64,000 bases of DNA. Origin: an uncultured Candidatus Saccharibacteria bacterium (lineage in GTDB: Bacteria; Patescibacteriota; WWE3; 2-01-FULL-39-13). The notes beneath the pieces are model-generated. The model saw only the letters and a list, made by a program, of their open reading frames with translations, was not told the origin of the DNA and did no database searches. How positions within the stretch are numbered: the first letter of the stretch is position 1; the number at the start of each line of letters is the position of its first letter. Of the stretch, positions 5,869 to 54,778 are shown piece after piece. The stretch covers positions 84,719-148,718 of the forward strand of contig CAYJKF010000002.1 of the NCBI GenBank assembly GCA_964370865.1, read 5' to 3'. A program made the translations under genes and the position numbers.

Positions 5869-5935
5869 GTAACCTATATTTATCATATTCGTATGGTAAA
5901 CTAATTGTTTAGTTGTTAGATTGTTTTGGTAAATT

Positions 5936-34520: not shown

Positions 34521-34521
34521 A

Positions 34522-35574
34522 ATGATTTTGCTTAAACGGGTATCCTTTTTAGATAAGCTAATGTTTACAAAACATTTAGCGATAATGATTAAATCCGGTG
34601 TTCCAATATTTGAGGCTATAGAATCTTTGGCAGCTAATAGCGAGAGTGAGTATTTCAAATTTGTATTAAAAGATGTTTTAGTTGGTATTGAAAACGGTAA
34701 GTCCTTATGTGATGCGTTTAAAAAATATCCGAAAATATTCGATGATTTTTATACAAGCTTGATAAAAGTTAGCGAGGATTCTGGAACTTTAGAAGAGACT
34801 TTAGAATTTTTAAGCGAGCAGCTCGCCAAAGACTACGCACTACGAAAAAAAATCCAGGGAGCTATGTTTTACCCAGCGATAATTATGGTCACCGGAGTTG
34901 GAATAGCGGGTTTCATTTCTCTTTTTATCTTGCCCCAATTAGTAGGGTTTTTCACATCTCTTGATATAGAATTGCCTCTTCCAACAAAAATCTTATTATT
35001 CATCGCGAACATAATGAAGGACCACGGTGTTTTGATATTTGGCGGAGGCGCAATATTTTTTATCTTCTTAAGATGGTTCTTTAATACAAAATATTTTAAA
35101 CCGGTATGGCATAAAATATTATTACGCATTCCAATTTTTGGCAAATTACTAAAATATGGTCAGTTGGCTCGTTTTAGTCGCAATTTAGCTACTTTGGTAA
35201 AGAGTGGTGTTCCAATTGCGGAGGGATTAAGGACTGCTTCAAACACAATGTCCAATGTTGTTTATAGAAATTACTTACTAATAGTTAGGGAGGATTTGAT
35301 TAAAGGAAAAAGTATTAGTGTTTCACTTGAAGCAAGAAAATTTTCTGAAATTCCTGCAATGTTAACTAAAATGATTGGTGTTGGTGAAAAAACAGGTAAT
35401 CTCGAAGAAGTTCTATTGTATTTAAGCGAATTCTATGAAGAAGAAGTTGACGATATGGCGAAAAATTTAACCACTATGCTTGAGCCAATTCTATTGGTGG
35501 GAATTGGTGGGATGGTAGCATTCATAGCATTAGCAATTATTGGACCAATTTACAAAGTTACCAGTAGTTTTTAA
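34522..35574 (+). CDS. pilC: Type IV pilus platform protein PilC (GspF family)
   Basis: Two repeated GspF domains and three TM segments. Start ambiguous: 34504 or 34522. Confidence 0.85.
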   Translation: MILLKRVSFLDKLMFTKHLAIMIKSGVPIFEAIESLAANSESEYFKFVLKDVLVGIENGKSLCDAFKKYPKIFDDFYTSLIKVSEDSGTLEETLEFLSEQLAKDYALRKKIQGAMFYPAIIMVTGVGIAGFISLFILPQLVGFFTSLDIELPLPTKILLFIANIMKDHGVLIFGGGAIFFIFLRWFFNTKYFKPVWHKILLRIPIFGKLLKYGQLARFSRNLATLVKSGVPIAEGLRTASNTMSNVVYRNYLLIVREDLIKGKSISVSLEARKFSEIPAMLTKMIGVGEKTGNLEEVLLYLSEFYEEEVDDMAKNLTTMLEPILLVGIGGMVAFIALAIIGPIYKVTSSF

Positions 35575-36018
35575 ATGAAATCTATAACAAATAGAATATA
35601 TAAAGCATTTTCTTATAATGAACTGTTGCTAAGTGTCACGATTATAGCAATCCTCTCTGCTATGGCAGGACCTTATTTATTGAATTCCTTAACGTCAAAT
35701 CAAGTGGAACAGACATCTCGAATCATAATTTCGCTACTTAGATCATCTCAACAGTATTCAATTGATAGGATTGAAAATGCCAACTGGGGAGTTTGTATGG
35801 TTGATGGTGAGATTATGCAGTATAAAAACTCATGTACTTCAGAAAATATACAGAAAACTTATATACCAGAGCCAAATATATCAATTAACGGATTAAACAA
35901 TGTTTTCTTCGAAAGTTATACGGGTGAACTGTCTTCTACTATAAGTATTTCCATAACAGATGGAATCGAGAGTCGATTAATTGAAATTAATGAGATCGGA
36001 GGATATGAAATCAATTAA
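35575..36018 (+). CDS. Pseudopilin / minor pilin-like protein (degenerate prepilin N-terminus)
   Basis: N-terminus KAFSYNELLLSVTIIAILSAMA resembles a class III signal peptide and has Glu+5, but has Ala instead of Gly at the cleavage site. Confidence 0.5.
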   Translation: MKSITNRIYKAFSYNELLLSVTIIAILSAMAGPYLLNSLTSNQVEQTSRIIISLLRSSQQYSIDRIENANWGVCMVDGEIMQYKNSCTSENIQKTYIPEPNISINGLNNVFFESYTGELSSTISISITDGIESRLIEINEIGGYEIN

Positions 36019-37783
36019 GAAAGCTTTTTCACTTGTAGAGTTGTTAGTAGCTCTTGGCGTTTTCACAATTGTGATATCTAGCGGTGCTGGATTTATCACT
36101 TCCAGTTACAAACTTACGACTATGAGTGAACAAAACACTAAAGCCAGACAATTGGTAAATGAAGGGTTAGAGGTTACTAAATATTTGAAAAGGAAAAGTT
36201 GGGACAGTTTAGTTAACGGACAGTGGGGAATTAATTATAATAATCAGTCACTAGACTGGGAATACATTCCTAACCTAGACATTACAGATAGTAAATATTC
36301 GCGAGTAGTTACTATCTCAGATATTTATCGGGAAGAAGATGGAACAATCGTTACAAATAGCCCAACAAGCGCATTGGATTTATTTTCGAAAAAAGTTAGT
36401 GTAACTGTTACTTGGGATAATGCAAATAATAACGATCGTACAATAACTCAATCATTTCTAATTACGAATTGGGAAAGGGAAGTTCCTGGAGGTGGTTCTG
36501 GCATGTTGGTTTATGCAGATTATTCTGGTTCAGATGATATTATACGGTACAGATTTTTATATGAGGATGGTACTTGGTCGGCCCAGTATACTATTCCAGA
36601 CGCAGGAGTGCCCGCTAATCGAGATACTCGGCGTATTGAGCTCTATGCATCAGATACAAGGGATGAATATGTTCTTATGTCAAAACATACCGAGGATGGT
36701 CAATTTATATTTGCTCACGTTTGGGATGGTTCTCGTTGGATAGAACCAATACAGTTGGTTGGGTATGGTGATAACACTAATCCGAATACAAGAAATTTTA
36801 GTGGTACTTACTTAGAGGATGGAAGATTTTTAGCGGTCTTTGATGATTTTACATTCACACCAAAATATAGAATTTGGAATGGTACAAGTTGGGGTTCAGA
36901 AGGATCTATTGGGAACTTGGGTTTTCTAAGCTACCCAGTCTGGATGGAAGTGGAGGCTAGACCAGGTAGTAATAGGGCTATTTTTGTTGTAAGAGATTGG
37001 TTACAGAAAACAACAACTTATGTTTGGGATGGTTCAAGCTGGGGAAGCCGTGTTACTCATGGTAGTTCATCAACTGGTTCATCAATTGAAAACATTTCAC
37101 TCCAGTGGAATCGATTTTCTGGTTCAAGATTAGCGTTAATGTTTAATGAAGCCAACGATAATAATCCAAATATTAAAATATGGAATGACTCAACAAACAG
37201 CTGGAGTAGTAATGTGGAAAATGTAGCCTTACCAGGTTATGCACGTATTTTTGAAATTAGTGATAATCCACAGAGGGATCAGTTTGTAGGGTGTGCGAAA
37301 GATTCTGTTCGCGGAATTAGTTGCCTTACAACTACGTATACTCCATCTTGGACAAATGCAACACAAATTGCTACCCGTACTCACGGGAATGCTGAGAGAA
37401 GCTTTAGTGTAGGATACGAAAATAGTGGAGATGACGCTCTCGTAGTTTACAGTAACGGACCAACCGATGCGGATTTGAGAGAACCGAAATTTAGAACCTT
37501 TAATGCGAGTAGTTTGAGTTGGTCAGGTGAGCAAAAAATAGATGAACTAGGGCCGACTTCTTCATATGCTCTTACTACGACTAGGGTTTTGCCATCACAT
37601 AATTCCAATGACGTTATGGTAGTAATGGGGGATCAATCTAAAAGGATTCATACCATAGTTTGGGATGGTGATAATAATCAATTTTATGATTCAGTCGGGC
37701 TTCAACTTACTAAACAAGGTGATTTTGGGTCATATAATGAAGATTTTTGGTATGCATTTTCTTGGAGGGAATATGAAGAATAA
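36005..37783 (+). CDS. Large pilin-like protein (~592 aa) with a C-terminal predicted 7-bladed beta-propeller. Candidate pilus-tip adhesin.
   Basis: Prepilin-like N-terminus KKAFSLVELLVALGVFTIV. Seven spaced repeats of the form (aromatic)x(V/I)W(D/N)GxxW: YEDGTWS, VWDGSRW, IWNGTSWG, VWDGSSWG, IWNDSTNSW, SLSWSG, VWDGDNN. Each repeat is preceded by a short hydrophobic strand. Confidence 0.6.
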   Translation: MKSIKKAFSLVELLVALGVFTIVISSGAGFITSSYKLTTMSEQNTKARQLVNEGLEVTKYLKRKSWDSLVNGQWGINYNNQSLDWEYIPNLDITDSKYSRVVTISDIYREEDGTIVTNSPTSALDLFSKKVSVTVTWDNANNNDRTITQSFLITNWEREVPGGGSGMLVYADYSGSDDIIRYRFLYEDGTWSAQYTIPDAGVPANRDTRRIELYASDTRDEYVLMSKHTEDGQFIFAHVWDGSRWIEPIQLVGYGDNTNPNTRNFSGTYLEDGRFLAVFDDFTFTPKYRIWNGTSWGSEGSIGNLGFLSYPVWMEVEARPGSNRAIFVVRDWLQKTTTYVWDGSSWGSRVTHGSSSTGSSIENISLQWNRFSGSRLALMFNEANDNNPNIKIWNDSTNSWSSNVENVALPGYARIFEISDNPQRDQFVGCAKDSVRGISCLTTTYTPSWTNATQIATRTHGNAERSFSVGYENSGDDALVVYSNGPTDADLREPKFRTFNASSLSWSGEQKIDELGPTSSYALTTTRVLPSHNSNDVMVVMGDQSKRIHTIVWDGDNNQFYDSVGLQLTKQGDFGSYNEDFWYAFSWREYEE

Positions 37784-38279
37784 AAAAGGAATGACATTAG
37801 TTGAAGTAGTCCTTTATGTTGCCATTTTGGTCATGTTTATGACTGCCCTCATGTCGTATGTATTTATGATTATGAATGGTCGTGCAAAATCTAAGGTACA
37901 AGAAGAGGTTCAGGATAATTTAGAATTAGTAATTAACAAATTAGAGTATGAACTCAAGAATGCCTCAGCAGTGTCTTCCACTTCCAATTCACTGTCTATC
38001 ACGAGTAGTCAGCTAGCTAGAGGTAATTCAATTTATAGAGTCGAGGCAGAAGCTGTTTTATTTGGAGTTGGAGATTCTGGTTCATGCAGTGTAGCTAGTC
38101 CTTGTTTCCTAACTAGCAATTTAGTTCAAGTTACAAATTTTGAAGTGACTCAAACGACAAGTACTGATGCGAACTCTATTATTCATTTCGAGATTACAAT
38201 TCAATATAAAGATAATAATAATGAAAAGTTAAGATATAGCGAAACGCAAAGTGGGTCAGTTTACATTAGAACAACATGA
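37773..38279 (+). CDS. Pseudopilin / minor pilin
   Basis: MKNKKGMTLVEVVLYVAILVMFM class III signal peptide with Gly at -1 and Glu+5. Start moved from the ORF-track 37665 to this Met. Confidence 0.6.
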   Translation: MKNKKGMTLVEVVLYVAILVMFMTALMSYVFMIMNGRAKSKVQEEVQDNLELVINKLEYELKNASAVSSTSNSLSITSSQLARGNSIYRVEAEAVLFGVGDSGSCSVASPCFLTSNLVQVTNFEVTQTTSTDANSIIHFEITIQYKDNNNEKLRYSETQSGSVYIRTT

Positions 38280-38656
38280 ATAATACAAATTTAAATGGCT
38301 ATATTGCCTTAGTTTCTGTATTGATTCTTTCAGCAGTGATTATGTCAATTTTAGTAACAGTTTCAATTACCTCAGCTTATAGAATTAACGGAATTCTAAA
38401 TGAACAAGGCGTAAATAATATTAAATTAGTAGCGGAGTCTTGCGCAGATGATGTTCTGTTAAAATTAAATCACGATAATCTACTTCCGAGTACCGTGACA
38501 GTGGATGGTGTTACGTGCAACGTCGTTCAAAATAGTCAGTTAGGTACTTTATGGGATTTTGATATCAGTGTAAGTTTATCTCAAATGGTCCACACAATAA
38601 ATATTGTTGCTGACAGAACTGATAAAATATACATTATAAGTTGGAATAATAAATAA
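38276..38656 (+). CDS. Pseudopilin-like small membrane protein (PilX-like?)
   Basis: N-terminus NGYIALVSVLILSAVIMSIL is a hydrophobic pilin-like helix. Start overlaps the previous stop by 4 nt. Confidence 0.45.
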   Translation: MNNTNLNGYIALVSVLILSAVIMSILVTVSITSAYRINGILNEQGVNNIKLVAESCADDVLLKLNHDNLLPSTVTVDGVTCNVVQNSQLGTLWDFDISVSLSQMVHTINIVADRTDKIYIISWNNK

Positions 38657-40228: not shown

Positions 40229-40861
40229 TTATGGTAGTTGAAGATTAGTTCCAGGTATTATAAGTGGATTACCGTTTTGCAAATATCCAACTTTATTAAT
40301 ATCAGCTATTTTTTTCCATTGCTTTCCTTCGCCGTATTTTCCTTCTGAAATTTCCCAAAGTGTATCGCCTCTTATTACTAAGTGAGTGTTACCAGTTATG
40401 TCTCCTGGATTATAATTAACTGCTACCCAAACACCTGGTGCGACTTTCACATTTTTAGTTAGGTTTGAATCAGTTGATGTGCTAACTATTCCACTGGGCT
40501 TATTTGTTGTTGGAGTAGGAGTTGCAATATTTCCACCTTTTTGACTTCCAACATTATTACCTCCAGCAAAACCAAGTACTTTATCGGACACAGGTTGATT
40601 GACATTTGGTGTTGCCAAAGTAGGAGCTTTACTTGGGGTTGGCAACGAATCGTCTAATGCCACATCTTGAGAAGACTCTGATGGTTCGCCAGTTTCCACT
40701 GTTGCTAAAGGAATTTCATTATTATCTCCAGCTTCTTTGAAGTATCGATACATAAAAACAATAATCGTACTGACAATGAGAAGGCCAATTACCAAAAAGA
40801 TGATAGCAACTTTGCCTGTATGTTTACTTTCGTTTACGGTTGTATTTATTTCATCTGCCAT
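40229..40861 (-). CDS. LysM domain peptidoglycan-binding membrane protein
   Basis: N-terminal TM helix, a Pro/Thr/Ser-rich linker, and a C-terminal LysM domain (GDTLWEISEGKYGEGKQWKKIADINKV...IIPGTNLQLP). Confidence 0.75.
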   Translation of the reverse strand: MADEINTTVNESKHTGKVAIIFLVIGLLIVSTIIVFMYRYFKEAGDNNEIPLATVETGEPSESSQDVALDDSLPTPSKAPTLATPNVNQPVSDKVLGFAGGNNVGSQKGGNIATPTPTTNKPSGIVSTSTDSNLTKNVKVAPGVWVAVNYNPGDITGNTHLVIRGDTLWEISEGKYGEGKQWKKIADINKVGYLQNGNPLIIPGTNLQLP

Positions 40862-40934
40862 ATTTATATTTTCTGGGCAGGGAAATTATTAGTGAGTGTA
40901 TTATAGGATATAAACCTCACAGACTCAACTTGTG

Positions 40935-41351
40935 CTAGAAAACCGTATTTTGAAGTTCAGAGTCAGCTGAGTCAAAATCAAGCTTATCAAGAGACTCATT
41001 CATCGAATCGGTGCTTTCATCTAGAGAATCAGTACTTCCATCAATTTCCATAATTAAGGAGTCAGAATCCAATTCGTTTTCTTCAACTGGGGTTGGAGTT
41101 ACTACTGGAGTAGCCTCTGCTGTTGGTGTTGGTACTATTGCTTCCTCATTCGTAGCTATCTTATCGTTTGGAAGCATTTCTAAAAAATAATATAGAGCTC
41201 CTGCAATTAGCAATAGAAATACTATTCCGACCGCAACGTATAAAGGTAATTTACTCCTACCTTTTTCAGGTGTTTCGGTCAGGTTTGTGTTAGAAGTTTG
41301 GTTAATTTGAGTTGTATCTGGTTGGGGTTGAATCGTTTGTATATTTTCCAT
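40935..41351 (-). CDS. Hypothetical membrane protein with an acidic Asp/Ser-rich C-terminus
   Basis: One TM helix (LPLYVAVGIVFLLLIAGALYYF). The C-terminus is rich in D/E/S. No homology signal. Confidence 0.4.
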   Translation of the reverse strand: MENIQTIQPQPDTTQINQTSNTNLTETPEKGRSKLPLYVAVGIVFLLLIAGALYYFLEMLPNDKIATNEEAIVPTPTAEATPVVTPTPVEENELDSDSLIMEIDGSTDSLDESTDSMNESLDKLDFDSADSELQNTVF

Positions 41352-41354
41352 TGA

Positions 41355-41957
41355 TTATTCTAAACTAGAAATTACTTCTCTTAAATCCGTTTTTATTGTT
41401 TTCAATCGACTAATTATACTTCTAGTATCTTCTTTTATTTCCGTTAACTTTGCTTTAATTTCCTCAACTTCTAATTCCTCAATGTTTTCATATTTTACTG
41501 TAAGTTCAGAAATTTCTACTTCTAATTGGTCAATTTCTGTTTGAATTGCAACAAGCTTAGCTGTTGCTACATCGTTTTCGAAGCCACTATCTACGATTCT
41601 TTTTTGAATTCGCTCTACTATTTCAGTTAACTTTTCTGTTACCTTCAATAGTCTTGCTTGTGATTTAGCGGTATGTTCTTTGATAAGTGAAAGTCTTGCC
41701 TGCTGTTGATCAGAGAATTTTCCTTTGAGATTTTCTACTCTTAACTCAGTTCTTTCTTTGAATGCCTTTCGAAATTCCTCGTATTTTTCCATCCTTTGAG
41801 GAGTGGTTTCAGGTTGTCGTTCCAGCCTTTCACGACCGGGGTCAACTTGTAACTGATTCTGTACACCATTTGGGACTTCCCGTTGGGCTATTGAATTAGC
41901 TGGGAAACATAGTAAGGCAAGTGAAATCAAAAAAAGAGGTATATATATACTTTTCAT
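41355..41957 (-). CDS. Secreted coiled-coil protein, hypothetical
   Basis: N-terminal signal peptide (MKSIYIPLFLISLALLCFPANSIA). The remainder is a charged heptad-like coiled-coil. Confidence 0.4.
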   Translation of the reverse strand: MKSIYIPLFLISLALLCFPANSIAQREVPNGVQNQLQVDPGRERLERQPETTPQRMEKYEEFRKAFKERTELRVENLKGKFSDQQQARLSLIKEHTAKSQARLLKVTEKLTEIVERIQKRIVDSGFENDVATAKLVAIQTEIDQLEVEISELTVKYENIEELEVEEIKAKLTEIKEDTRSIISRLKTIKTDLREVISSLE

Positions 41958-42003
41958 ACAAGTAATCTATATAAAATCAGTGTGAATGTAAAGGAATTTA
42001 TTA

Positions 42004-42079
42004 TGGCGGGAGTGACGGGATTCGAACCCGCAACCTCTTCCGTGACAGGGAAGCGCTCTAACCGTTGAGCTACACCCCC
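42004..42079 (-). tRNA. tRNA-Asp (anticodon GTC), CCA encoded
   Basis: Reverse complement folds as acceptor GGGGGTG/CACTCCC. D-arm GCTC-AACGGTT-AGAGC. Anticodon stem CTTCC/GGAAG with loop CTGTCAC. T-arm GCGGG-TTCGAAT-CCCGT. Discriminator G73 (Asp identity). Confidence 0.85.
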
Positions 42080-42181
42080 TTACAGAAGGGGTAACAGAAG
42101 AATTATAGTGAAGTTTAGGCTAGAAAACAATAAATAGAGTTTATCCCTGGTTCGTAATGGGTGATATAATCGGTAAGAAAT

Positions 42182-43369
42182 ATGGTTAGCAAATTTTTAA
42201 ATAAAGACGATTTAGCCAAATTAAAATCCGAAACACCAACTACTAAGAAAATTGTTTTTACCTATGGGACTTTTGATCTAATACACAGCGGTCATGCAGC
42301 ATATTTAGTTGAAGCGAAAAACTTAGGTGATGTGTTAATCGTTGGCGTTACGACTAATAAATCTCGTAGAGAAATGAGAGGAAAAGGATTTCCTCTAGTT
42401 GATCAAAAAAACCGCGCGGAGTTACTAACATATTTTGATTTTGTGGATGGAGTTATATACGTTGATGACCGAAATTTACTTCAACAACTAAAAATACTTA
42501 AACCTGATATTTTTTTTACACACTCTTTAGATTGGAAAAGCCATTTAAGAAAACCTGCAGAAGAAAAGTTTGTTGAGGGATATGGTGGACAGGTCTATAA
42601 ACGAAAACCACAGGGACCATTTGTTTCCTCTTCTATGATTGTAGAATTAGTTGCCGATTTAAAAATAAAAGAAGTTGTCGAATATTTCTTTGGAAAAATA
42701 AAGATTGACCTAACGGATGGTAATTGGAAAGTTGGAGCGTTCTCTGGATTAAAAACGAAAATTAGAACAGAATCATTAGTTTTTCCAGAGCACTTAATGT
42801 CACTTGGATTATTTGGGAGTAAATTCGGAAGAAAAATTATCCCTAAAAATAAATTAAGCATTATCGTTAAAAAATTGAAAAAAGATTCCAAGAAAGTCGT
42901 TCTGTCAGCAGGTTCTTGTGATTTACTTCACGTGGGACATGTTCGTTTCTTTTCCAAAGCCAAGGAAGAGGGCGATATTCTGATACTTGGTATACCAACG
43001 GATAAAATAATTAAAAAGCAAAAGGGTAGAGGACGTCCAATCATAAATGAAAATTCTAGAGCAGAACTTATGTCGTTTTTCCCTTTTATTGATTATATTT
43101 TTCTATTCGATGATGAAAGTATTTTGCAACCTATTATTGATTTACAGCCTGATGTTTTTTTTACGGTCAAAGAAGAATGGAATAATATCGAAAATTCATC
43201 TATATCTGATAATATTAAAAAGTGGGGAGGACGAATTGTTACCGCTCCTCCACAAGCAGATGGACTTTCTTCTAGTAAATTAATTAAACGAGCTGCGGGT
43301 ATTCGTGTAAGAGAACTTTTTAAAGAAGTCCTACATGAAGCCGAGAAACTTACTAGTCTTAAAGATTGA
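42182..43369 (+). CDS. Tandem cytidylyltransferase-domain protein: two HxGH nucleotidyltransferase modules, Pcyt2/TagD-like
   Basis: First module VFTYGTFDLIHSGHAAYLVEAK. Second module SAGSCDLLHVGHVRFFSKAKEEGDILILGI. Both carry the HxGH motif of the CTP-transferase family. 395 aa. Confidence 0.65.
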   Translation: MVSKFLNKDDLAKLKSETPTTKKIVFTYGTFDLIHSGHAAYLVEAKNLGDVLIVGVTTNKSRREMRGKGFPLVDQKNRAELLTYFDFVDGVIYVDDRNLLQQLKILKPDIFFTHSLDWKSHLRKPAEEKFVEGYGGQVYKRKPQGPFVSSSMIVELVADLKIKEVVEYFFGKIKIDLTDGNWKVGAFSGLKTKIRTESLVFPEHLMSLGLFGSKFGRKIIPKNKLSIIVKKLKKDSKKVVLSAGSCDLLHVGHVRFFSKAKEEGDILILGIPTDKIIKKQKGRGRPIINENSRAELMSFFPFIDYIFLFDDESILQPIIDLQPDVFFTVKEEWNNIENSSISDNIKKWGGRIVTAPPQADGLSSSKLIKRAAGIRVRELFKEVLHEAEKLTSLKD

Positions 43370-43851
43370 TGACTATGCATACTGATTATTCTAATTTTAA
43401 AGCACGACAAAATGGAGAGTACGAAAAAGCATGGCAGTCTACCGGTAAATGTGTGTTTTGTGACTTGAGAGATAAATATATTATTTATGAGAAAAATGGA
43501 GTGGTCCTTACAACAAATTTATTTCCATACATCGATGGGCATTTAATGGTAATTCCACGTCGTCATTCTGAAACTATTCAAGAGGTTACGGAGGAGGAAT
43601 GGGTTGAGTTCAAACATATTATCGAACTGGGCTCTGAGTTGCTAAAAAAAACTCTAAAAATAAAGGATGTCTGGGTTTTATATCGAATTGGAGAAGGCTA
43701 TAGGGCTGGAAAATCCGTCGTTCATAGTCATCTCCACTTGATTCCATATTCACTTGATTTAATTAAAATGGAGTATCAAGAATTAAATATTTCACCGCAG
43801 GAACTAGCAGAGAAATTACGAAAAAGTATCAAGAAAAATGAAACTCAATAA
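43366..43851 (+). CDS. HIT (histidine triad) family nucleotide hydrolase/transferase
   Basis: Histidine triad VVHSHLHLIPY near the C-terminus. N-terminal CVFCD. 161 aa. Confidence 0.75.
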   Translation: MMTMHTDYSNFKARQNGEYEKAWQSTGKCVFCDLRDKYIIYEKNGVVLTTNLFPYIDGHLMVIPRRHSETIQEVTEEEWVEFKHIIELGSELLKKTLKIKDVWVLYRIGEGYRAGKSVVHSHLHLIPYSLDLIKMEYQELNISPQELAEKLRKSIKKNETQ

Positions 43852-44362
43852 CCACCAGAAAAATGATTTTATAAAGAAGGCCGCATTTATTGCCGACAAA
43901 TCATCATGTTTATATAAAGTTGGTTGTGTTGGTGTTATTGAAGATGTTGGACAGACTATTCCATCAAGCGCTCTAAAAGATTTATCATATAGAAAAAAGG
44001 ACGGTTTTATATATCTTAAAAGTTGGAATGAAACTTTACATGGCGAAATTTTTTGCCAAGAATGTGATGACAAAGGAAATAAAGTTTGTATCCGGCAAGT
44101 TGAAAATTTAAAAGGTAGAGATTTCCAGAAAGTATGTTCAATTCATGCTGAATCCAACTTAATAGCTAAATTCGCAAGATATGGAATTTCTACAGAAGGG
44201 ATGGTTTTGTTTATAACAAATACGCCGTGTTATGTATGCGCAAAAAATCTAATTCAAGCTGGGGTTTCTAAGGTTTATTATCTAGCTGAGCATACTGACA
44301 CAACAGGAATGGATATACTTAGGACAAACGGAATAATTTCAGAGAAAATTTCATTTAACTAG
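43838..44362 (+). CDS. dCMP (deoxycytidylate) deaminase, ComEB-like
   Basis: Zinc-binding deaminase motifs HAESNLIAKFA and PCYVCAKNLIQAG. dCMP-deaminase-type insertion carrying extra Cys/His (CQECDDKGNKVC). Confidence 0.75.
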   Translation: MKLNNHQKNDFIKKAAFIADKSSCLYKVGCVGVIEDVGQTIPSSALKDLSYRKKDGFIYLKSWNETLHGEIFCQECDDKGNKVCIRQVENLKGRDFQKVCSIHAESNLIAKFARYGISTEGMVLFITNTPCYVCAKNLIQAGVSKVYYLAEHTDTTGMDILRTNGIISEKISFN

Positions 44363-46114
44363 AGTTTGATACAAGCCTGTGGTTTTAAAGCCATTCTTTT
44401 TATAATATTCTCTCGTTCCAACTGAAGATATTACTGCAAGTTTTTGAAAATTATTTTCTTTTGAAATCTCTAAGGACTTTGCAATTAATGTCTTTCCCAA
44501 ACCTAAATGTTGGGTTTTAGCCTTTTCACCTATATTTAGGCTTTCTCCATAAATGTGAATTTCACGAATAATCGCGGCTCCATCCAATTCCTCGATAAAA
44601 TGTGGTGAATCCAGATTAGGCAAAGATAAACGTAAAAATCCTGCAATTTGATTTTCGTTTGTAACAAATTCCAAGAACTTTTCAGAAGAGACAGATGTTT
44701 CATATTCCAAAATTTTTAATTTAAGATCTCCTAATTCGACTTTTTTACCGCGAATTTCTCTATATCTGATTTCCTGTATATCAGCTTTTTGATTTTTGAT
44801 ATTTATTTCAACTGTTTGACGTAGATTAGTTTTTTTATTTCCAACTACAATATCTTGAGATCCAATATCCCTAATCATTCGAGTAATCCTGCAGTATGCT
44901 GGTGTTAATTTATAAGCTTCCTCTAGAACGTGAGTTAGTTCTTCATAAGTATATGGTTTCCATAAACCTTTTTTATAATATTGCATTAACTCTGCGCTAG
45001 CGATTAGTGAACATGGATAAATTTTTATTTCATCGGGCCTAAATTTAGGATCACTAAAGACTTTCTTGTAATCCTCAATATCTTTTTGTGGTGTTGAACC
45101 ATATAAGTTTGGCATCCAGTGCGCGTGAATTTTAAATCCTGCTTTCCTTAATATCGCGACTGCATTTGCAGTAACAGAAGAATCATGTCCTCTCTTATTA
45201 AGCATCAAGACTTTATCATTCAAGCTTTGAAAACCAATTTGTACCTTTGTAGCTCCAAGTTTTCGAATACGAATAACTTCGGTTTCTGTTATTTCATCTG
45301 GTCTTGTCTCTATAACAAGTCCAATACAGCGAGTTTCTGCTAATTCATTCTGTGAGTGAACCGTAAATAATTCGTCCCATGTTGCATGTTCGGTTTCAGA
45401 TTGTGGTTTTTTTGGAAGTATCGCCATCGAAACGATTTGATTATAAGTTTTATTAAACTGTGTTCCATCAATTTCTTCTAATAACTTATCTTCGAATGGA
45501 ATCTCCATTTTCGTTTCAACAGGAGTTGGCAACGTAAAAGTATCGAAATCATTCATAGCATCGAAGCATCTTTTAACAAACCATATCTGATAAGGTTCGG
45601 GGTATGAGGTCCAGGTTCCACCAAGAATAATTAATTCAATTTTATCTGTTGAATGGCCAAGTGCTTTATATGCAACTAGCCTGTTAAAAGTTTGTGCATA
45701 CGGGTCGAATTTATTTCTAGTCGCTCTTTGTGCTCCAGGTTCATCTGATAAATAGCTTTTTGGCATTCGAACATCATTTGGACAAAAAATACATTTTCCA
45801 GGACATGGAAATGGCTTGGTAAGTACGGTAACTGGAGTTACTCCTGAGATAGATCTTACTTCTTTGGATTTCAAATTTTGTCTCAAAGTTTTAAGTTCGG
45901 TAGGAGTAAGGGTTATTTCATCAGTCTTCAAAAATTCAATTAGTGATACTGTTAGATCGCTTTTTTTGAAAATTCCTTTATCTCCCTTTGGAAACTGCCT
46001 AAATGCTGTCTGAATGTCTTTATCATCAGCCTTTTCCATTTTAGCCAGCTTGTAGATTAGCGGTATTGTCTGATTTTTATTCTTATTTATGTCAAAATGA
46101 TAGCTATTATTCAT
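44351..46114 (-). CDS. elp3: Elp3-like tRNA wobble-uridine modification enzyme (radical SAM + GNAT acetyltransferase domains)
   Basis: RSISGVTPVTVLTKPFPCPGKCIFCPN reproduces the Elp3 radical-SAM signature (R.ISG...V.V..KP..CP....C.YCP). C-terminal GNAT motif GLGKTLIAKSLEISKENNFQKLAVISSVGTREYYKKNGF. 587 aa. The start may be the internal Met at 46039. Confidence 0.8.
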   Translation of the reverse strand: MNNSYHFDINKNKNQTIPLIYKLAKMEKADDKDIQTAFRQFPKGDKGIFKKSDLTVSLIEFLKTDEITLTPTELKTLRQNLKSKEVRSISGVTPVTVLTKPFPCPGKCIFCPNDVRMPKSYLSDEPGAQRATRNKFDPYAQTFNRLVAYKALGHSTDKIELIILGGTWTSYPEPYQIWFVKRCFDAMNDFDTFTLPTPVETKMEIPFEDKLLEEIDGTQFNKTYNQIVSMAILPKKPQSETEHATWDELFTVHSQNELAETRCIGLVIETRPDEITETEVIRIRKLGATKVQIGFQSLNDKVLMLNKRGHDSSVTANAVAILRKAGFKIHAHWMPNLYGSTPQKDIEDYKKVFSDPKFRPDEIKIYPCSLIASAELMQYYKKGLWKPYTYEELTHVLEEAYKLTPAYCRITRMIRDIGSQDIVVGNKKTNLRQTVEINIKNQKADIQEIRYREIRGKKVELGDLKLKILEYETSVSSEKFLEFVTNENQIAGFLRLSLPNLDSPHFIEELDGAAIIREIHIYGESLNIGEKAKTQHLGLGKTLIAKSLEISKENNFQKLAVISSVGTREYYKKNGFKTTGLYQTLVK

Positions 46115-46819
46115 ATGAATGCCGAAACGATAGACTCCATTATAAGGTTAAACAACAACTTCTACAAAAAGGTTGCTCAAAGTTTTTCGAATACAAGACA
46201 ACATCCTTGGGATGGATGGAAACGTGTTCTGACTTATATTGAGGAAAATCACGTACAAACTATACTAGATTTTGCATGCGGAAACGGTCGTTTTCTGGAT
46301 TACCTAATTTCTCAAAATATTGAACCTAAATATACTGGGGTGGATTCAAATGAGGACTTGCTAGGCATTGCAGAGAAACATCATCAAAGACACCGATTCT
46401 TTAATCGTGATTTGTTAAATGAAGGATTACCCGGTCGAGAGAAATATGACATGATTGTTTCTTTTGGATTTATGCATCATGTTCCAACGGAGGAAATTCG
46501 AGAGCAGGTTATTTCCAAACTTTTTGATTTACTTAATGAGAAGGGAATTTTAATTCTAACTTTCTGGAGTAATCCAAATCGAAGAGGAATAATTCCACTT
46601 GATAAATTAACAGGCGAAGCTCTTAGGTTAAATAGTGAAATGGGTGAGAATGATTTCTTTTTTGGATGGGAAGGAGATTATGAAACACCGAGGTTTTGTC
46701 ACTTATTCGATGAAGAAGAAGTGATAAAACTCTTAGATAAATATAAACAATTTGAATTATTTAAATCCGATGGACGTACCTCGCAAGATAACATATATGC
46801 TGTATTATTTAATAGATGA
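46097..46819 (+). CDS. trm9: Trm9-like SAM-dependent methyltransferase (tRNA carboxymethyluridine methyltransferase family)
   Basis: FYKKVAQSFSNTRQHPWDGW and ILDFACGNGRFL match yeast Trm9 (VHKVYNEIAPHFSQTRYKPWP and GIDVGCGNGKYL). VSFGFMHHVPTEEIREQVISKLFDLLNEKGILILTFWS matches Trm9 ISIAVVHHWSTRERRVEVIRHVLSKLRQGGQALIYCWA. The start could be the Met at 46115. Confidence 0.7.
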   Translation: MIAIIHMNAETIDSIIRLNNNFYKKVAQSFSNTRQHPWDGWKRVLTYIEENHVQTILDFACGNGRFLDYLISQNIEPKYTGVDSNEDLLGIAEKHHQRHRFFNRDLLNEGLPGREKYDMIVSFGFMHHVPTEEIREQVISKLFDLLNEKGILILTFWSNPNRRGIIPLDKLTGEALRLNSEMGENDFFFGWEGDYETPRFCHLFDEEEVIKLLDKYKQFELFKSDGRTSQDNIYAVLFNR

Positions 46820-48363
46820 GTGAATGGCCCGTATACTTTAAAGACAGACTAACTATTTCGAATTTAAATAGTGCTAACGCTATTGCATGCCTTTGGACTC
46901 CAAAAGAAACAATTGAAAAACTCACTATTCCAGAAGCATATTGCGTTCTAGGCCAGTTGTATACAAAAAAGGGAATCAACTATCTATTAAGAAATATTTT
47001 AGCCAATCCATTTATTAAAAATATTTACTTGGTTGGAAACGACTTAATGGAAAGCGGCGAAGCTCTAGTTAAGTTTTTTGAAAATGGAATCGATGAAAAT
47101 TATAAAATAATTGGTGATGACTCTGCAGTAATAGATAAGGAAATTTCAATAGAAAAAATAAATATCTTGAGAGAAAAAGTTTCATTGGTGGATTTACGTG
47201 GAGCTGATAAATTAACTTCACTAAAAACTGCGATAAAACCCAACGAAGACATTTCATTATGGTCTGAGCCCGAGATGTTCGAAGAACCACCAGCTCCAGA
47301 TATTTCCACATTTCCATCAGAAGTAGATTTAATGAGAATTCGTCGTCCGCTAATATCCGAAGCCTATTTATCAGTACTTAAACACGTGATGCAGTTTGGT
47401 TTGGAGTCGGAGCCAGTTATGAATTATGTTTCAGATACATCCAAATCAATGAAGGAATTATTAAATCTTTCAGTAATTATTACTGATGAGGAGGTGGACT
47501 CCCCAAATGTTCCTGGCTATATGCCATTTAGTGCAACTGACTTGCAAAATTACTACAATGGTTTTTTTAATCCAGATAAAATGACAGAGGATTATACCTA
47601 TGGTGAAAGACTCTTTAATTTCGCAAATGATGAAATTAATGAACTAAAGAAAATATACCCTCATCTCAATATCGATAGATTTCAAAAATATTTTCCAGAG
47701 GGAGGAATCGACCAAGTTGCAATCTCCATCATTCGTAAGCTACAAGGTTTTAAACATGATAAAGGAGCAATTGCCCTTCTTGGAAATCCCTTTACAGATG
47801 TTTTTCCACAACGACCTTCAAAAAAAATACCATGTCTGTTTTTGATCCAATGTCAGATATATCAGGATAAATTAAATATGACTGCCTACTTTAGAAGTAA
47901 CGATATGTACAATGCATGGCCATTGAATGCATTTGCTTTAAGAAAGCTACAGAAGGAGATTGCTGAAAAACTTGATTCAAAACTAGGTTCACTAATAACA
48001 ATTTCAAATATGGCACATATATATGAACATAATTATTCTGATGCCAAAAAAATAATAGATGAAAACTATAAAGGTAATTGTGAATGGGATCCAAGAGGAA
48101 ATATTATTGTTGAAGTTATTAATAAAGAAATCGTAGCCAAATTAATTTCACCAGAAGGAACCGTAGAATTGCGAGAATGGAAAATTGATGGGACGTTACC
48201 TCATGCAGCCAGAGAGTTATCATTTCTAATTGATAAAGATTTAGCAGTTTCAACTTTTGGTAATGCTTTATATTTGGGTAGACAATTTGAAAGAGCCGAG
48301 ACCGCAATAAAACTGAAATTAGAATTTAAACAGGATAACCCACTTGATTTCGAGAAAGTCTAA
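46816..48363 (+). CDS. Thymidylate synthase (ThyA) family protein with a ~180-aa N-terminal extension of unknown fold
   Basis: The C-terminal ~330 aa align with ThyA. [27 protein letters not shown] matches DQI..v...L..dP.SRR.ivsAWNp. [36 protein letters not shown] matches [48 protein letters not shown] matches GGDTHLYSNH. The catalytic Cys is present. Confidence 0.6.
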   Translation: [515 protein letters not shown]

Positions 48364-48547
48364 TTAGCAAAGACCGATTGGTACGCTATTACAAGTAACA
48401 ATGAACTTACTGCAACGAGAACACCCTGAGCGACAATATCTTTAACTTTCTTGTGATGTAGATTTTTGGCAGGCATAGTAGGTAAATTGTATACTAAAAA
48501 TCTTCTAAAAGGTATAATCTTTAGTAAGTAAATAATTATTAAAAAAT

Positions 48548-49114
48548 ATGGATCTAATATACTTTTTGTTAATACCAATTGCCTTAGCAGCTTTTGTTTG
48601 GTTTTCGTATAACTCATTAGTTAAATTAAGAATACGTGTAAAAGAAGCATGGGCTGATATAGATGTCCAATTGAAAAAAAGATATGATTTGTTACCTGAT
48701 TTGATTGAAACAGTAAGAAAAGCCACAGCAGTAGACGAACAAATTTTAACCAAGATTACAGAACTTAGATCAAAGGCAATGGAAGACTCTGCTAAAGGAG
48801 TTAATTTACAGGAAAGAGCTCAAGTTGAGAACCAACTATCGAGTATGATGAGGGATGTAAAAGTTCAGGTTGAAGCATACCCTGAAATTAGATCTCACCA
48901 AGAATTAACAAGTTTAATGGACAAAGTAACTGAAATTGAGGAAAAAATTGCTTATTCTAGAAGGTTTTATAACGCAAATGTTAAGGATTACAACACGCAA
49001 GTCGCAATGTTCCCAAGTAATATTATCGCTGGAGTTTTTAACTTTTCTTCAGAACAGTTTTTCGCAGCAAATGAAACTGAAAGAGAAGATATAAAAGTAT
49101 CATTCGATAAGTAA
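48548..49114 (+). CDS. lemA: LemA family protein
   Basis: N-terminal TM helix plus the conserved LemA core (LVKLRIRVKEAWADIDVQLKKRYDLLPDLIETV). Adjacent to htpX, as is usual. Confidence 0.85.
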   Translation: MDLIYFLLIPIALAAFVWFSYNSLVKLRIRVKEAWADIDVQLKKRYDLLPDLIETVRKATAVDEQILTKITELRSKAMEDSAKGVNLQERAQVENQLSSMMRDVKVQVEAYPEIRSHQELTSLMDKVTEIEEKIAYSRRFYNANVKDYNTQVAMFPSNIIAGVFNFSSEQFFAANETEREDIKVSFDK

Positions 49115-53053: not shown

Positions 53054-54778
53054 ATGCCAAGTTACAACAGGTTACAAACTTCTAGTGCCTGGCAAAAACC
53101 CCCAAAAAACACTTCACCAAAATTTATTTTCGTTTCAGGCGGAGTTATGAGTGCGCTTGGTAAAGGGATTACTGCTGCCAGTATATCCATGTTGCTAAAA
53201 AAACATGGTTACATTGTATGTCCAATTAAATGTGAAAATAATCTTAATGTAGATTTTGGAACAATTAATCCAATTGAACATGGTGATCCTTTTCTTTGTC
53301 ACGATGGTCTAGAAGCTGATGTGGATTTAGGTAATTACGAAAGATTCTTAAATCAACCTGTTGGGACAGATAACTTCATGACCATGGGACAGTTATATTC
53401 AACTGTAATCAATAATGAAAGATTGCTTAAATATCATGGTGAAGATGTAGAACCAATTCCACATATTGTTGATGAAATAATCGAGAGATACAAGTTAGCA
53501 GCTAAATCTCACAAAGCAGATTATGTTGTTATCGAACTTGGTGGAACTGTTGGCGAATATGAAAATAATAATGGCTTATATTACGAGGCTGCTAGAAGGT
53601 TAGCTTTTCAATATCCCGTTGCACATGTACATGTAACTTATGTCCCGGTTCCTCCACATGTAGGTGAACCAAAAACAAAACCTGCACAATTTGGAATTAA
53701 AGAGCTAATGAGCATGGGGATTTATCCAGATTTTATTGTAGTAAGAAGCGAAATCCCATTAGATGACCAACGCAAATATAAATTTGCTATGAAATTTAAT
53801 ATTGATCCAAATAATGTTTTTTCTAACGAAAACTTGAAAAGTTCAGATGAAGTGCCTGTTCATCTTCATAAACAAAAAATTGATGAAAGAATTCTAAGTT
53901 TATTTGGCGACAAATCAAAGAAAATCGATATTGATGAATGGACTAGCTATGTTAACAAGCTAGTTAAAAATAAAACTAAAATAGTCAAAATAGGCATTGT
54001 CGGAAAGTACTTAGCATCAGGACAGTCTCAATCAATCGATTCTTATTATGCTCTGGTAAAGGCTTTAGAGCATGCAGCAACTAATCAAAATAGTAATTTA
54101 GAAATCCAATTTGTTAATTCTGAAACAGATGAGAAAAATATGAAAAGCGCCTTAAAAAATGTAGACGGTATCATTGTCCCAATCGGATGGGGTTCCAGAG
54201 GTGTTGAGGGAAAAATAAATGCAATTACTTTTGCGAGGGAAAATAAGATTCCTTACCTCGGACTTTGTTATGGTATGCAACTAGCTTGCGTAGAATTCGC
54301 AAGAAATGTTGTCGGTTTAACTGGTGCAAATTCAATAGAAGTAAATCCAAAGACAAAATATCCAATTATTCATAGTATTCCATTCGACCCACAATATCAG
54401 GTGATAAAAGCCGAAGGATCTTCAATGAGACTTGGAACTTATAAATGTGTCCTTAAAAAAGGTTCCTTAGCCGAGAAAGTTTATAATCTACATGTTTATA
54501 TGGATGACAAAGAGAATCGAATCGTAAGTGAGCGTCATAGACACAGATTTGAATTCAATAATGAATATAGAGAAGAGTTAGAAAAAGCAGGGCTAATTAT
54601 ATCCGGAACCTCCCCGGATAATTTTTTTGTAGAGTTTATTGAACTTGATAAAAAGGACCATCCATTTTTCATTGCAACGCAAGGTCATCCAGAATATAAA
54701 TCAACGCCTCTTATTCCACATCCTTTATTTGTGGAATTTGTTAAAGCATCGATAAAGTCAACAGCGCATAAAAAGTAG
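53054..54778 (+). CDS. pyrG: CTP synthase
   Basis: FIFVSGGVMSALGKGITAASI synthetase N-terminus. C-terminal class I glutamine amidotransferase domain (GLCYGMQLACVEFARNV, HPE triad). Has a ~20-aa N-terminal extension or an alternative start. Confidence 0.9.
   Translation: MPSYNRLQTSSAWQKPPKNTSPKFIFVSGGVMSALGKGITAASISMLLKKHGYIVCPIKCENNLNVDFGTINPIEHGDPFLCHDGLEADVDLGNYERFLNQPVGTDNFMTMGQLYSTVINNERLLKYHGEDVEPIPHIVDEIIERYKLAAKSHKADYVVIELGGTVGEYENNNGLYYEAARRLAFQYPVAHVHVTYVPVPPHVGEPKTKPAQFGIKELMSMGIYPDFIVVRSEIPLDDQRKYKFAMKFNIDPNNVFSNENLKSSDEVPVHLHKQKIDERILSLFGDKSKKIDIDEWTSYVNKLVKNKTKIVKIGIVGKYLASGQSQSIDSYYALVKALEHAATNQNSNLEIQFVNSETDEKNMKSALKNVDGIIVPIGWGSRGVEGKINAITFARENKIPYLGLCYGMQLACVEFARNVVGLTGANSIEVNPKTKYPIIHSIPFDPQYQVIKAEGSSMRLGTYKCVLKKGSLAEKVYNLHVYMDDKENRIVSERHRHRFEFNNEYREELEKAGLIISGTSPDNFFVEFIELDKKDHPFFIATQGHPEYKSTPLIPHPLFVEFVKASIKSTAHKK

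Follow-up and report, generated by a model that had tools for sequence, protein, structure and literature searches.

A six-gene block beside tRNA-Asp in a WWE3 bacterium probably interleaves two conserved gene sets

Introduction

Do six consecutive genes, all predicted to act on nucleotides or on the bases of nucleic acids and placed beside a tRNA gene, form one functional island? The question is raised by a locus in an uncultured Candidatus Saccharibacteria bacterium (GTDB lineage Patescibacteriota, WWE3), which lies in a stretch of 64,000 nucleotides (assembly GCA_964370865.1, contig CAYJKF010000002.1, positions 84,719 to 148,718 of the forward strand) referred to here as the window. The block encodes, in order, a tandem nucleotidyltransferase, a HIT protein, a deaminase of the deoxycytidine monophosphate (dCMP) type, Elp3, a Trm9-like methyltransferase and a three-domain thymidylate synthase. 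A first-pass annotation of the sequence had taken the six genes as one island, serving either tRNA and pyrimidine metabolism or the hypermodification of DNA or RNA, and had read the tRNA gene as an integration landmark.

The answer reached here is that the block consists, with a probability of about 0.7, of two separate conserved gene sets that are interleaved in the core chromosome of a WWE3 bacterium. The first, module A, comprises the transferase, HIT, deaminase and synthase genes, and the second, module B, the genes for Elp3 and the methyltransferase. Module A is most likely a Patescibacteria-wide operon, which supplies deoxyuridine monophosphate (dUMP) and makes deoxythymidine monophosphate (dTMP). 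Module B, judged by its protein families, is presumably a bacterial pathway to 5-carboxymethyluridine (cm5U) and 5-methoxycarbonylmethyluridine (mcm5U) at the wobble uridine, U34. The idea of functional linkage is therefore retained for two units, and not for the six genes as one; pyrimidine metabolism and tRNA modification fit these units better, and hypermodification less well.

The Patescibacteria, also known as the candidate phyla radiation (CPR), hold a large share of bacterial diversity, have tiny, AT-rich genomes and depend on hosts for nucleotides and cofactors. The making of dTMP is therefore central to their biology.

Results

Four of the six genes, those of module A, are supported as a functional unit, since distant Patescibacteria have them as one contiguous operon and gene fusions connect them. 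In three loci with synthases 39–43% identical to that of the window, the genes for the tandem transferase, HIT protein, dCMP deaminase and synthase form an uninterrupted series on one strand, their ends overlapping; a gene for an aminoglycoside phosphotransferase (APH)-like kinase adjoins the operon in all three, serine hydroxymethyltransferase (SHMT) in two and FolD, in addition, in one. The same contiguous, co-directional order is found at synthase identities of 35–45% (loci L081–L085). A metagenome scan with the synthase alignment gave 80 further loci, which were dereplicated at 90% synthase identity. Here, the deaminase gene immediately precedes that of the synthase in 41 of 57 loci, HIT is upstream in 38 of 51 and the cytidylyltransferase (CT) in 33 of 46; all three are present upstream in 30 of 46. 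Of 28 dereplicated loci, 22 have the APH-like kinase in the neighbourhood, and SHMT, FolD and thymidylate kinase (Tmk) are neighbours in 8–11 loci. A HAD phosphatase follows the synthase in seven loci, and the HAD protein downstream of the synthase is weakly like pyrimidine 5'-nucleotidase, below the cut-off. The operon is flanked by rpsB-tsf-frr with TopA-DprA in about 30 loci and by unrelated genes in others. In the 64-kb window no homologue of the APH kinase, of SHMT or of FolD was found anywhere, and the simplest reading is that the window carries the module A operon, in which the Elp3 pair separates deaminase and synthase. No description of this operon or of the three-domain synthase was found in the open-access literature.

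The fusions, assigned with Pfam, together connect all members from the kinase through the synthase. Kinase, two CT modules and HIT share one polypeptide of 722–745 aa in L128, L145, L146 and L163; two CT modules and HIT are joined in 556 aa in L162, CT and HIT in 347 aa in L082, L083, L102 and L103, and HIT and dCMP deaminase in 315–318 aa in L112, L154 and L159. In a protein of 733 aa (P0332), the MtrA-like, ThyA and DUF4346 domains of the synthase are followed by a dCMP deaminase. HIT is also fused to NUDIX in the same operon context (L135, 6103–7053; L137, 1732–2706); HIT and NUDIX domains both cleave nucleoside-diphosphate-X or nucleoside triphosphate (NTP) bonds, with release of the nucleoside monophosphate (NMP). 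Carriers of the same fusion are only 55–78% identical to each other, so that the fusions are old and not errors of assembly. A search with the HIT protein added no new fusions, all 78 of the 78 matches being standalone (100 word-sharing candidates were scored).

The slot upstream of the synthase is filled by other genes in other lineages. In a group of four loci, which includes L142 and L143, the gene that immediately precedes the synthase encodes a dCTP deaminase (NF005734, 310.7 bits, with the cut-off at 283), and in L144 the order is dCMP deaminase, deoxynucleoside monophosphate (dNMP) kinase, synthase, Tmk and dUTPase. Three routes to dUMP are known, and dCTP deaminase, dUTPase and dCMP deaminase are its textbook suppliers (PMC10733785). 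As dCTP deaminase and dUTPase hold the same slot, the genes upstream of the synthase are read as supplying dUMP. Directly upstream of the dCTP deaminase–synthase pair, L142 also has a conserved open reading frame (ORF) of 427 aa (5364–6644, with a homologue in L143), which has no Pfam match.

Elp3 and the methyltransferase are supported as the second functional unit. Elp3 scores 457.6 bits in TIGR01211 against a cut-off of 350 (residues 69–582), has the Pfam domains Radical_SAM, Radical_SAM_C and GNAT, and carries CPGKCIFC at residue 104 and QHLGLG at residue 535. Its relatives in the genome collection number 533 and come mostly from WWE3 and other Patescibacteria, Chloroflexota and Acidobacteriota, the nearest being from genome bins of WWE3 and other Patescibacteria. 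In a survey anchored on Elp3, 80 loci were fetched with 10-kb flanks, and twelve proteins of the window were mapped onto them. The methyltransferase gene is divergent from and adjacent to that of Elp3 in 35 of 76 loci, and the pair is kept in 18 of 18 loci labelled as Patescibacteria, 3 of 3 labelled as Acidobacteriota and 12 of 50 labelled as Chloroflexota.

The methyltransferase of the window has TRQHPW at residue 33, DFACGNG at 58, HHVP at 127 and RFCH at 199, and the motifs F..TR..PW.GW, D.GCGNGR, HH(I/V)P and RY.H are conserved in 24 methyltransferases adjacent to Elp3. The best PDB match of a profile of these 24 homologues is Trm9 of Yarrowia lipolytica (5cm2_Z, E 3.5e-16, profile positions 27–220 of 236); the next matches, at E 2e-13 or weaker, cover the Rossmann core only, so the margin in favour of Trm9 is modest. 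Elp3 would carboxymethylate U34 of tRNA to cm5U, which the methyltransferase would esterify to mcm5U. Clustering of Elp3 and Trm9 orthologues has already been noted in Sulfolobus; Trm9-Trm112 of Haloferax makes mcm5U, and Trm112 is required by both eukaryotic and Haloferax Trm9 (PMC6144793). The Elp3 of Dehalococcoides acts on tRNA and was described as a rare bacterial example (PMC6367351). No Trm112 partner was identified, no search aimed at a Trm112-like small zinc-ribbon protein having been made. Nothing was found in the open-access literature on Elp3 in CPR bacteria or on this pair in Patescibacteria.

How, then, do the two modules come to lie in one block? Only the nearest relatives (L001–L005, L008 and L010) retain the complete block along with LemA-HtpX-GatCAB; L008 keeps the order with insertions of up to 6.6 kb, L010 is rearranged, and spacing within the WWE3 block is variable, with insertions of 0.5–6.6 kb. 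In distant WWE3, other Patescibacteria, Chloroflexota and Acidobacteriota, only the methyltransferase stays with Elp3, divergent and adjacent. Likewise, Elp3 is near the synthase in only 2 of 28 well-flanked dereplicated loci, both of WWE3 type. Conservation of the block as a unit is thus confined to the closest WWE3, and beyond WWE3 the Elp3 pair has no link with module A. In WWE3, module B lies between the deaminase and the synthase, so that module A is split into two predicted transcription units, CT-HIT-deaminase and methyltransferase-synthase.

Two rearranged loci of WWE3 type, L010 and L093, have HIT and synthase genes, then tRNA-Asp (seen in L010), then transferase, deaminase and Elp3; in L010 the methyltransferase comes after Elp3. 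The genes remain clustered in both, despite a breakpoint at the tRNA.

Chance adjacency of unrelated housekeeping genes in a compact genome, with inherited synteny and nothing else behind it, could explain why the full order with LemA-HtpX-GatCAB is limited to the closest WWE3 relatives, why rpsB-tsf-frr and TopA-DprA recur in about 30 loci and why the spacing in WWE3 varies. It is nevertheless highly improbable, as several domain fusions, independent of one another, connect the members, the order of the four genes persists between unrelated flanks at 35–45% protein identity and the Elp3–methyltransferase pair is kept across three or more phyla.

The tRNA gene raises a second alternative, namely that the block is a mobile or accessory island integrated at tRNA-Asp. 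The gene does lie beside the block, 102 nt upstream of the first ORF, though it is on the opposite strand. Further, a 48-nt imperfect direct repeat of 71% identity brackets the block (42177–42224 and 48098–48145). Both copies are coding, one at the start of the transferase gene and the other in the DUF4346 domain of the synthase; the repeat was considered as an att site and rejected as such, since both copies lie in conserved coding sequence, and it is taken as a chance occurrence in AT-rich DNA. The composition of the block, on which the first-pass annotation had proposed a check, does not deviate: GC is 33.6% against 34.3% for the window, and tetranucleotide distance, relative to 6-kb windows, has z = 1.16. 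No integrase ORF turned up, either within the block or in the annotated genes on its flanks, and no repeat derived from tRNA-Asp was found around the block. Upstream flanking genes include those for type IV pili and a LytR_C protein, and downstream are LemA, HtpX, GatCAB, CTP synthase, DnaE, a Clp ATPase and L19; GatCAB, the pilus genes, PyrG and DnaE are core flanks. The tRNA-Asp gene adjoins the transferase gene in WWE3 relatives L002, L003, L004 and L010 and is not beside the operon in L081, L082 and L084, which means that its synteny holds only within WWE3, where the flanks are syntenic as well. Given normal composition, the absence of a tRNA-derived repeat, core-gene flanks and tRNA-Asp synteny in WWE3, the block is chromosomal backbone and not an insertion at the tRNA. 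The probability left for an integrated island is next to nil, and the tRNA loses its part as an integration landmark to become a piece of the WWE3 backbone.

Among the upstream flanking genes, the type IV pilus set (32829–38656) includes a PilB-like ATPase, a PilC-like platform protein and ORFs with prepilin motifs. Between it and the block, at 40229–41957, are three ORFs without a Pfam match, in a stretch bounded by tRNA-Gly(CCC) and tRNA-Asp. The downstream CTP synthase, PyrG (CTP_synth_N + GATase), is encoded at 53054–54778 (+), 4.7 kb past the block and after LemA-HtpX-GatCAB. It is a further pyrimidine gene nearby, and its product CTP would precede dCTP.

When the ORF coordinates were recomputed, the six genes were found where the first-pass annotation had placed them, its family assignments were upheld by Pfam and NCBIfam, and the catalytic motifs are intact in all six proteins (Table 1). 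The 4-nt overlap of the transferase and HIT genes (43366–43369) and the 14-nt overlap of the HIT and deaminase genes (43838–43851), both reported then, are real. In addition, the deaminase and Elp3 genes are convergent with a 12-nt overlap (44351–44362), and the methyltransferase and synthase genes overlap by 4 nt (46816–46819). The Elp3 and methyltransferase ORFs as listed share 18 nt at their 5' ends. Methyltransferase homologues begin at Met7 of the window protein (ATG at 46115), which is the probable start. With this start, the divergent start codons would stand back to back with no intergenic DNA, and each promoter would therefore sit inside the other gene. A scan for promoter and terminator consensus sequences over 41300–48700 found fewer sites than in shuffled sequence and was thus uninformative.

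Table 1. Features of the block, the adjacent tRNA gene and the domains of the synthase
Feature	Position	Strand	Remarks
tRNA-Asp (GTC)	42004..42079	-	ARAGORN + Rfam; context only, in neither module
Tandem nucleotidyltransferase, module A gene 1	42182..43369	+	two CTP_transf_like modules, 395 aa
HIT protein, module A gene 2	43366..43851	+	161 aa; PF01230
dCMP deaminase-type zinc deaminase, module A gene 3	43838..44362	+	174 aa; PF00383
Elp3, module B gene 1	44351..46114	-	587 aa; radical SAM + GNAT; TIGR01211
Trm9-like SAM (S-adenosylmethionine) methyltransferase, module B gene 2	46097..46819	+	class I; 240 aa as listed
Three-domain thymidylate synthase, module A gene 4	46816..48363	+	515 aa; PF04208 + PF00303 + PF14251
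MtrA-like domain of synthase	about 46819-47238	+	PF04208
ThyA domain of synthase	about 47338-48063	+	PF00303
PterinBD-DUF4346 domain of synthase	about 48088-48336	+	PF14251

What does the synthase make, and from what? The protein had been described as a ThyA with an extra domain; the ThyA domain is present, and the extra domains are two, an MtrA-like one at the N-terminus and a PterinBD-DUF4346 one at the C-terminus. All three Pfam families exceed their gathering scores (48.4 bits against 24.3 for PF00303). Homologues number 434, with the architecture common to the 120 listed, and are named in their sources mostly as thymidylate synthase, from Patescibacteria. Residues C340, R360, D363 and N371 correspond to C146, R166, D169 and N177 of the Escherichia coli enzyme and are invariant in 61 sequences. 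Together, D169 and N177 are diagnostic of enzymes that use dUMP and not dCMP, and that are not flavin 5-hydroxylases (PMC13326640). By this criterion the synthase is of the dUMP-using type, since D363 and N371 are kept. An AF2 model (pLDDT 90.6) retrieved only enzymes of the thymidylate synthase (TS) fold with Foldseek, the best match being the dCMP hydroxylase of phage HY126; alignments to chains of dihydrofolate reductase (DHFR)-TS have an rmsd of about 25 Å, as only the TS part superposes.

The N-terminal domain alone matched 493 proteins among 1.84 billion representatives. Near-all full-length matches are of 460–545 aa with the domain N-terminal, and this MtrA-like subfamily exists essentially only in these synthases. 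The domain scores 35.9 bits in PF04208 and matches 5laa at E 6e-7, and only the soluble domain matches; in TIGR01111 (mtrA) it scores 28.5 bits against 249. No Mtr genes neighbour the synthase. A true cobalamin-binding, membrane-anchored MtrA subunit was considered for this domain and rejected, on the match to the soluble domain only and the lack of Mtr neighbours.

Four IMG/VR contigs of 80–189 kb and 42–47% GC, classed as viral (L166–L169), also encode full-length three-domain synthases, 26–33% identical. The synthase genes lie at about 5800–7540 in each locus, with no gene for a transferase, HIT or deaminase near them, and their products retain the Cys, the Asn and the RSND motif.

In phages, hypermodification clusters for arabosyl-5-hydroxycytosine contain a TS homologue, an APH-fold kinase and a nucleotidyltransferase (PMC13326640). 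A synthase beside an APH-like kinase and a nucleotidyltransferase resembles them, and the six genes could be one island for DNA or RNA hypermodification, in which the synthase homologue makes 5-hydroxymethyl-dUMP that is then decorated with sugar as in phages. The Foldseek match to the phage HY126 hydroxylase, a polar residue in the place of E. coli L143 (weighed in the Discussion) and the three-domain synthases on four large IMG/VR contigs would agree with such an island. This is a very unlikely reading, for 5-hydroxylases have Asn at the position of D169, where Asp is found here, and Asn at N177 marks dUMP as substrate (PMC13326640). Moreover, the synthase is widespread in Patescibacteria among housekeeping genes, its neighbours elsewhere are SHMT, FolD, Tmk, dCTP deaminase and dUTPase, no glycosyltransferase-like gene is seen in the cluster, and outside WWE3 the module B genes lie apart from those of module A. 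It is for the dUMP-type Asn and the D169 equivalent, the SHMT/FolD/Tmk neighbours and the lack of a glycosyltransferase-like gene that hypermodification fits less well than the dTMP-making reading of module A.

The tandem transferase has an N-module (about 42251–42646, HSGH at residue 35) and a C-module (about 42863–43294, HVGH at residue 250), and PF01467 matches it twice (98.6 bits). In the C-module, HxGH, K281, R285-P286, S363 and S365 are invariant or nearly so among 65 family members; the N-module is relaxed, the first His being kept in 45 of the 65. Its AF2 model (pLDDT 83, pTM 0.83) spans both modules of human phosphoethanolamine cytidylyltransferase (ECT; 4xsv/3elb, TM 0.74–0.75), and each module aligns structurally with HldC. 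The full-length tandem family was found only in Patescibacteria, and homologues are annotated in their sources as rfaE nucleotidyltransferase domain. TIGR02199 (RfaE domain II) also matches twice, 201.9 bits against 181.5, the cut-off being reached only as the sum over two modules, and no heptose pathway genes were found near the transferase. The protein was not filed as HldC.

The HIT protein (PF01230, 47.6 bits against 21.5) has CVFC at residue 29 and the histidine triad HSHLHLI at residue 120, which is that of the hydrolase branch and not the H-x-H-x-Q of the GalT branch. PDB matches are to HIT/Hint/Fhit proteins and Ap4A phosphorylase, relatives are sometimes annotated as ATP adenylyltransferase/phosphorylase, and hydrolase and phosphorylase activities are not separable by sequence. 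L081, an operon-HIT locus, also encodes a second, short canonical HIT of 117 aa (13622–13975). The operon HIT, which is 150–180 aa long and has a CxFC extension at its N-terminus, is thus a paralogue of its own. The deaminase (PF00383, 44.1 bits against 25) has HAE at residue 103 and PCYVC at residue 130. Some dCMP deaminases of the survey (L111, 3861–4823; L135, 7053–7985; L136, 4856–5806; L137, 3886–4884) have an additional N-terminal part of about 170–200 residues without a Pfam match. The profile of the APH-like kinase matched only generic small-molecule kinases in the PDB (homoserine kinase, the ACAD11 kinase domain, aminoglycoside and choline kinases), so that no substrate can be inferred for it.

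These families are also at home in the envelope. The kinase, tandem transferase and HIT could make, proofread or recycle an envelope nucleoside diphosphate (NDP)-sugar or CDP-alcohol, of Kennedy or ADP-heptose type, with only the deaminase and synthase acting on DNA precursors and the two sets co-located or co-regulated. The closest characterised relatives of the transferase are HldC/HldE domain II, TagD, CCT and ECT, and the kinase has the small-molecule fold of APH, choline kinase and homoserine kinase. The HAD phosphatase that follows the synthase in seven loci recalls the kinase-phosphatase-transferase logic of ADP-heptose synthesis and of phage UDP-arabinose synthesis (PMC13326640). Such a division of labour is rather unlikely, because the fusions of HIT with dCMP deaminase and with NUDIX tie the NMP-releasing step to the deaminase, because dCTP deaminase or dUTPase takes the same slot in other lineages and because no glycosyl- or phosphotransferase for an activated product was recognised in the cluster.

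Discussion

How might a kinase, a tandem nucleotidyltransferase and a HIT protein serve the making of dTMP? We know of no role for any of the three in textbook pyrimidine metabolism. HIT proteins release NMP from NMP-X, HxGH transferases combine an NTP with a phospho-acceptor to give NMP-P-X, and APH-fold kinases make phospho-acceptors. What is observed is the membership of the two modules, their conservation, the fusions and the intact active sites; the chemistry that follows is inferred. The APH-like kinase, absent from the window, would phosphorylate X, a sugar or a small alcohol. From X-P and dCTP, the ECT-like tandem transferase would make dCDP-X, which the HIT protein would cleave to dCMP and X-P. 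In sum, dCTP would be fed to the deaminase, in analogy to the dCTP deaminase/dUTPase route. The deaminase, by the chemistry of its family, would turn dCMP into dUMP, and the synthase would methylate dUMP to dTMP with a pterin or folate one-carbon donor, which the MtrA-like and PterinBD-DUF4346 domains may help to bind or handle.

The feeder step from dCTP through dCDP-X to dCMP is put forward tentatively; it fits the fusions of HIT with deaminase and with NUDIX and the presence of dCTP deaminase in the same slot. More doubtful is the scheme as a whole, in which many Patescibacteria would run a five-enzyme channel from dCTP to dCDP-X, dCMP, dUMP and dTMP, with the extra domains of the synthase capturing or recycling scavenged pterin, as a non-orthologous replacement of Dcd/Dut and perhaps of DHFR. 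In CPR genomes, folA was detected in 54.8% (PMC11974145). That the MtrA-like and DUF4346 domains replace DHFR is speculation, whose only basis is the lack of folA in the other ~45% of these genomes (PMC11974145).

Several points weigh against the reading offered here. All activities are assigned by homology. The full trio upstream of the synthase is incomplete in 16 of 46 loci, and conservation of the operon may be partly inherited synteny, since rpsB-tsf-frr is common to about 30 loci as well. Neither the window nor the WWE3 loci have the kinase; if it is needed, the WWE3 cycle must draw X-P from elsewhere in the organism. Three enzymes for what amounts to a pyrophosphatase reaction is unparsimonious, a HIT protein acting as adenylyltransferase or phosphorylase would not yield dCMP, and the transferase has its nearest characterised relatives among enzymes that use sugar or alcohol phosphates to make envelope precursors. 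The best NCBIfam match of the deaminase, TIGR02571 (ComEB), is at 58.5 bits and does not reach its cut-off of 219.45, so that dCMP is assigned as its substrate by context, through the adjacency to the synthase and the fusion of the two. Similarly, the synthase scores 132.1 bits in TIGR03283, the methanogen-type TS, against a cut-off of 174.55 that is not reached. Finally, a bulky hydrophobic residue at E. coli L143 is thought to exclude water and so to favour a methyl over a hydroxymethyl product. The equivalent position, three residues ahead of the catalytic Cys in a register set by sequence only, is polar in the window (K337) and is K, R, S, T or N across the family. As it is neither hydrophobic nor acidic, a methyl and a hydroxymethyl product cannot be told apart from the sequence.

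The two-module reading has consequences beyond this locus. What is annotated in Patescibacteria as thymidylate synthase is a distinctive three-domain protein that ends a conserved, fusion-linked gene set. Should the proposed route hold, it would be a new way to draw deoxycytidine nucleotides into dTMP, and the synthase would be of a new, cofactor-handling type. In several bacterial phyla, Elp3 has a Trm9-like methyltransferase at its side, which predicts mcm5U wobble chemistry of the eukaryotic and archaeal type where Elp3 has been called rare. Lastly, a plausible island can be two interleaved conserved modules.

Comparison with known systems

The phage clusters for arabosyl-5-hydroxycytosine, with a kinase/nucleotidyltransferase of the AfhE type (PMC13326640), likewise place a TS-fold enzyme beside an APH-fold kinase and a nucleotidyltransferase. 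The phage transferase, however, has the MurU/LicC fold, whereas that of module A has the HxGH cytidylyltransferase fold. The phage synthase carries D169N and N177D where Asp and Asn are found here, and the phages have glycosyltransferases, which are absent here.

For the transferase, there are two parallels. Human ECT (Pcyt2), with its Kennedy-pathway kinase, is the only top PDB match over both modules (~365 columns), and relatives pair the transferase with a kinase of the APH/choline-kinase fold, in some cases on one polypeptide. Identity to ECT is only ~18%, each module is closer by sequence to HldC/RfaE domain II, and the Kennedy pathway has no parallel for the link of HIT with dCMP deaminase. 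HldC/RfaE domain II is the best sequence relative of each module (5x9q, E 7.5e-17, 28% identity, TM 0.84–0.89). Unlike RfaE, however, the protein has no PfkB kinase domain, and its tandem architecture and context are unrelated to the synthesis of the lipopolysaccharide core.

Module B resembles the Elp3 and Trm9 of eukaryotes (Elongator and Trm9-Trm112), archaea and Dehalococcoides, in that a full-length Elp3 is beside a methyltransferase with Trm9-like motifs. It differs in that the hosts are bacteria (Patescibacteria, Chloroflexota and Acidobacteriota), identity to Trm9 is low and the products, cm5U and mcm5U, are predicted ones.

Fusion of a synthase to cofactor-related domains is known from the DHFR-TS of protozoa and plants. 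The short TS core of the window protein has the model of the archaeal methanogen-type TS (TIGR03283) as its best match. In DHFR-TS the added domain is a reductase; here the added domains are MtrA-like and PterinBD-DUF4346, and the sequence implies no reductase activity.

The route of Dcd and dUTPase is similar in that these enzymes hold the same slot beside the three-domain synthase in other lineages, and the proposed net conversion is also from deoxycytidine triphosphate to dUMP. The enzymes are unrelated, and the intermediates of the proposed route would be dCDP-X and dCMP, not dUTP. Module A also resembles the dCMP deaminase–TS route of Gram-positive bacteria, eukaryotes and phage T4 (cd/td; PMC10733785). 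That route has no textbook counterpart of the fusion-linked HIT, tandem nucleotidyltransferase and kinase, and its synthase lacks the two extra domains. What the two share is a deaminase with HAE and PCxxC motifs directly upstream of a folate-type synthase with its catalytic residues, and in P0332 deaminase and synthase are even fused into one protein.

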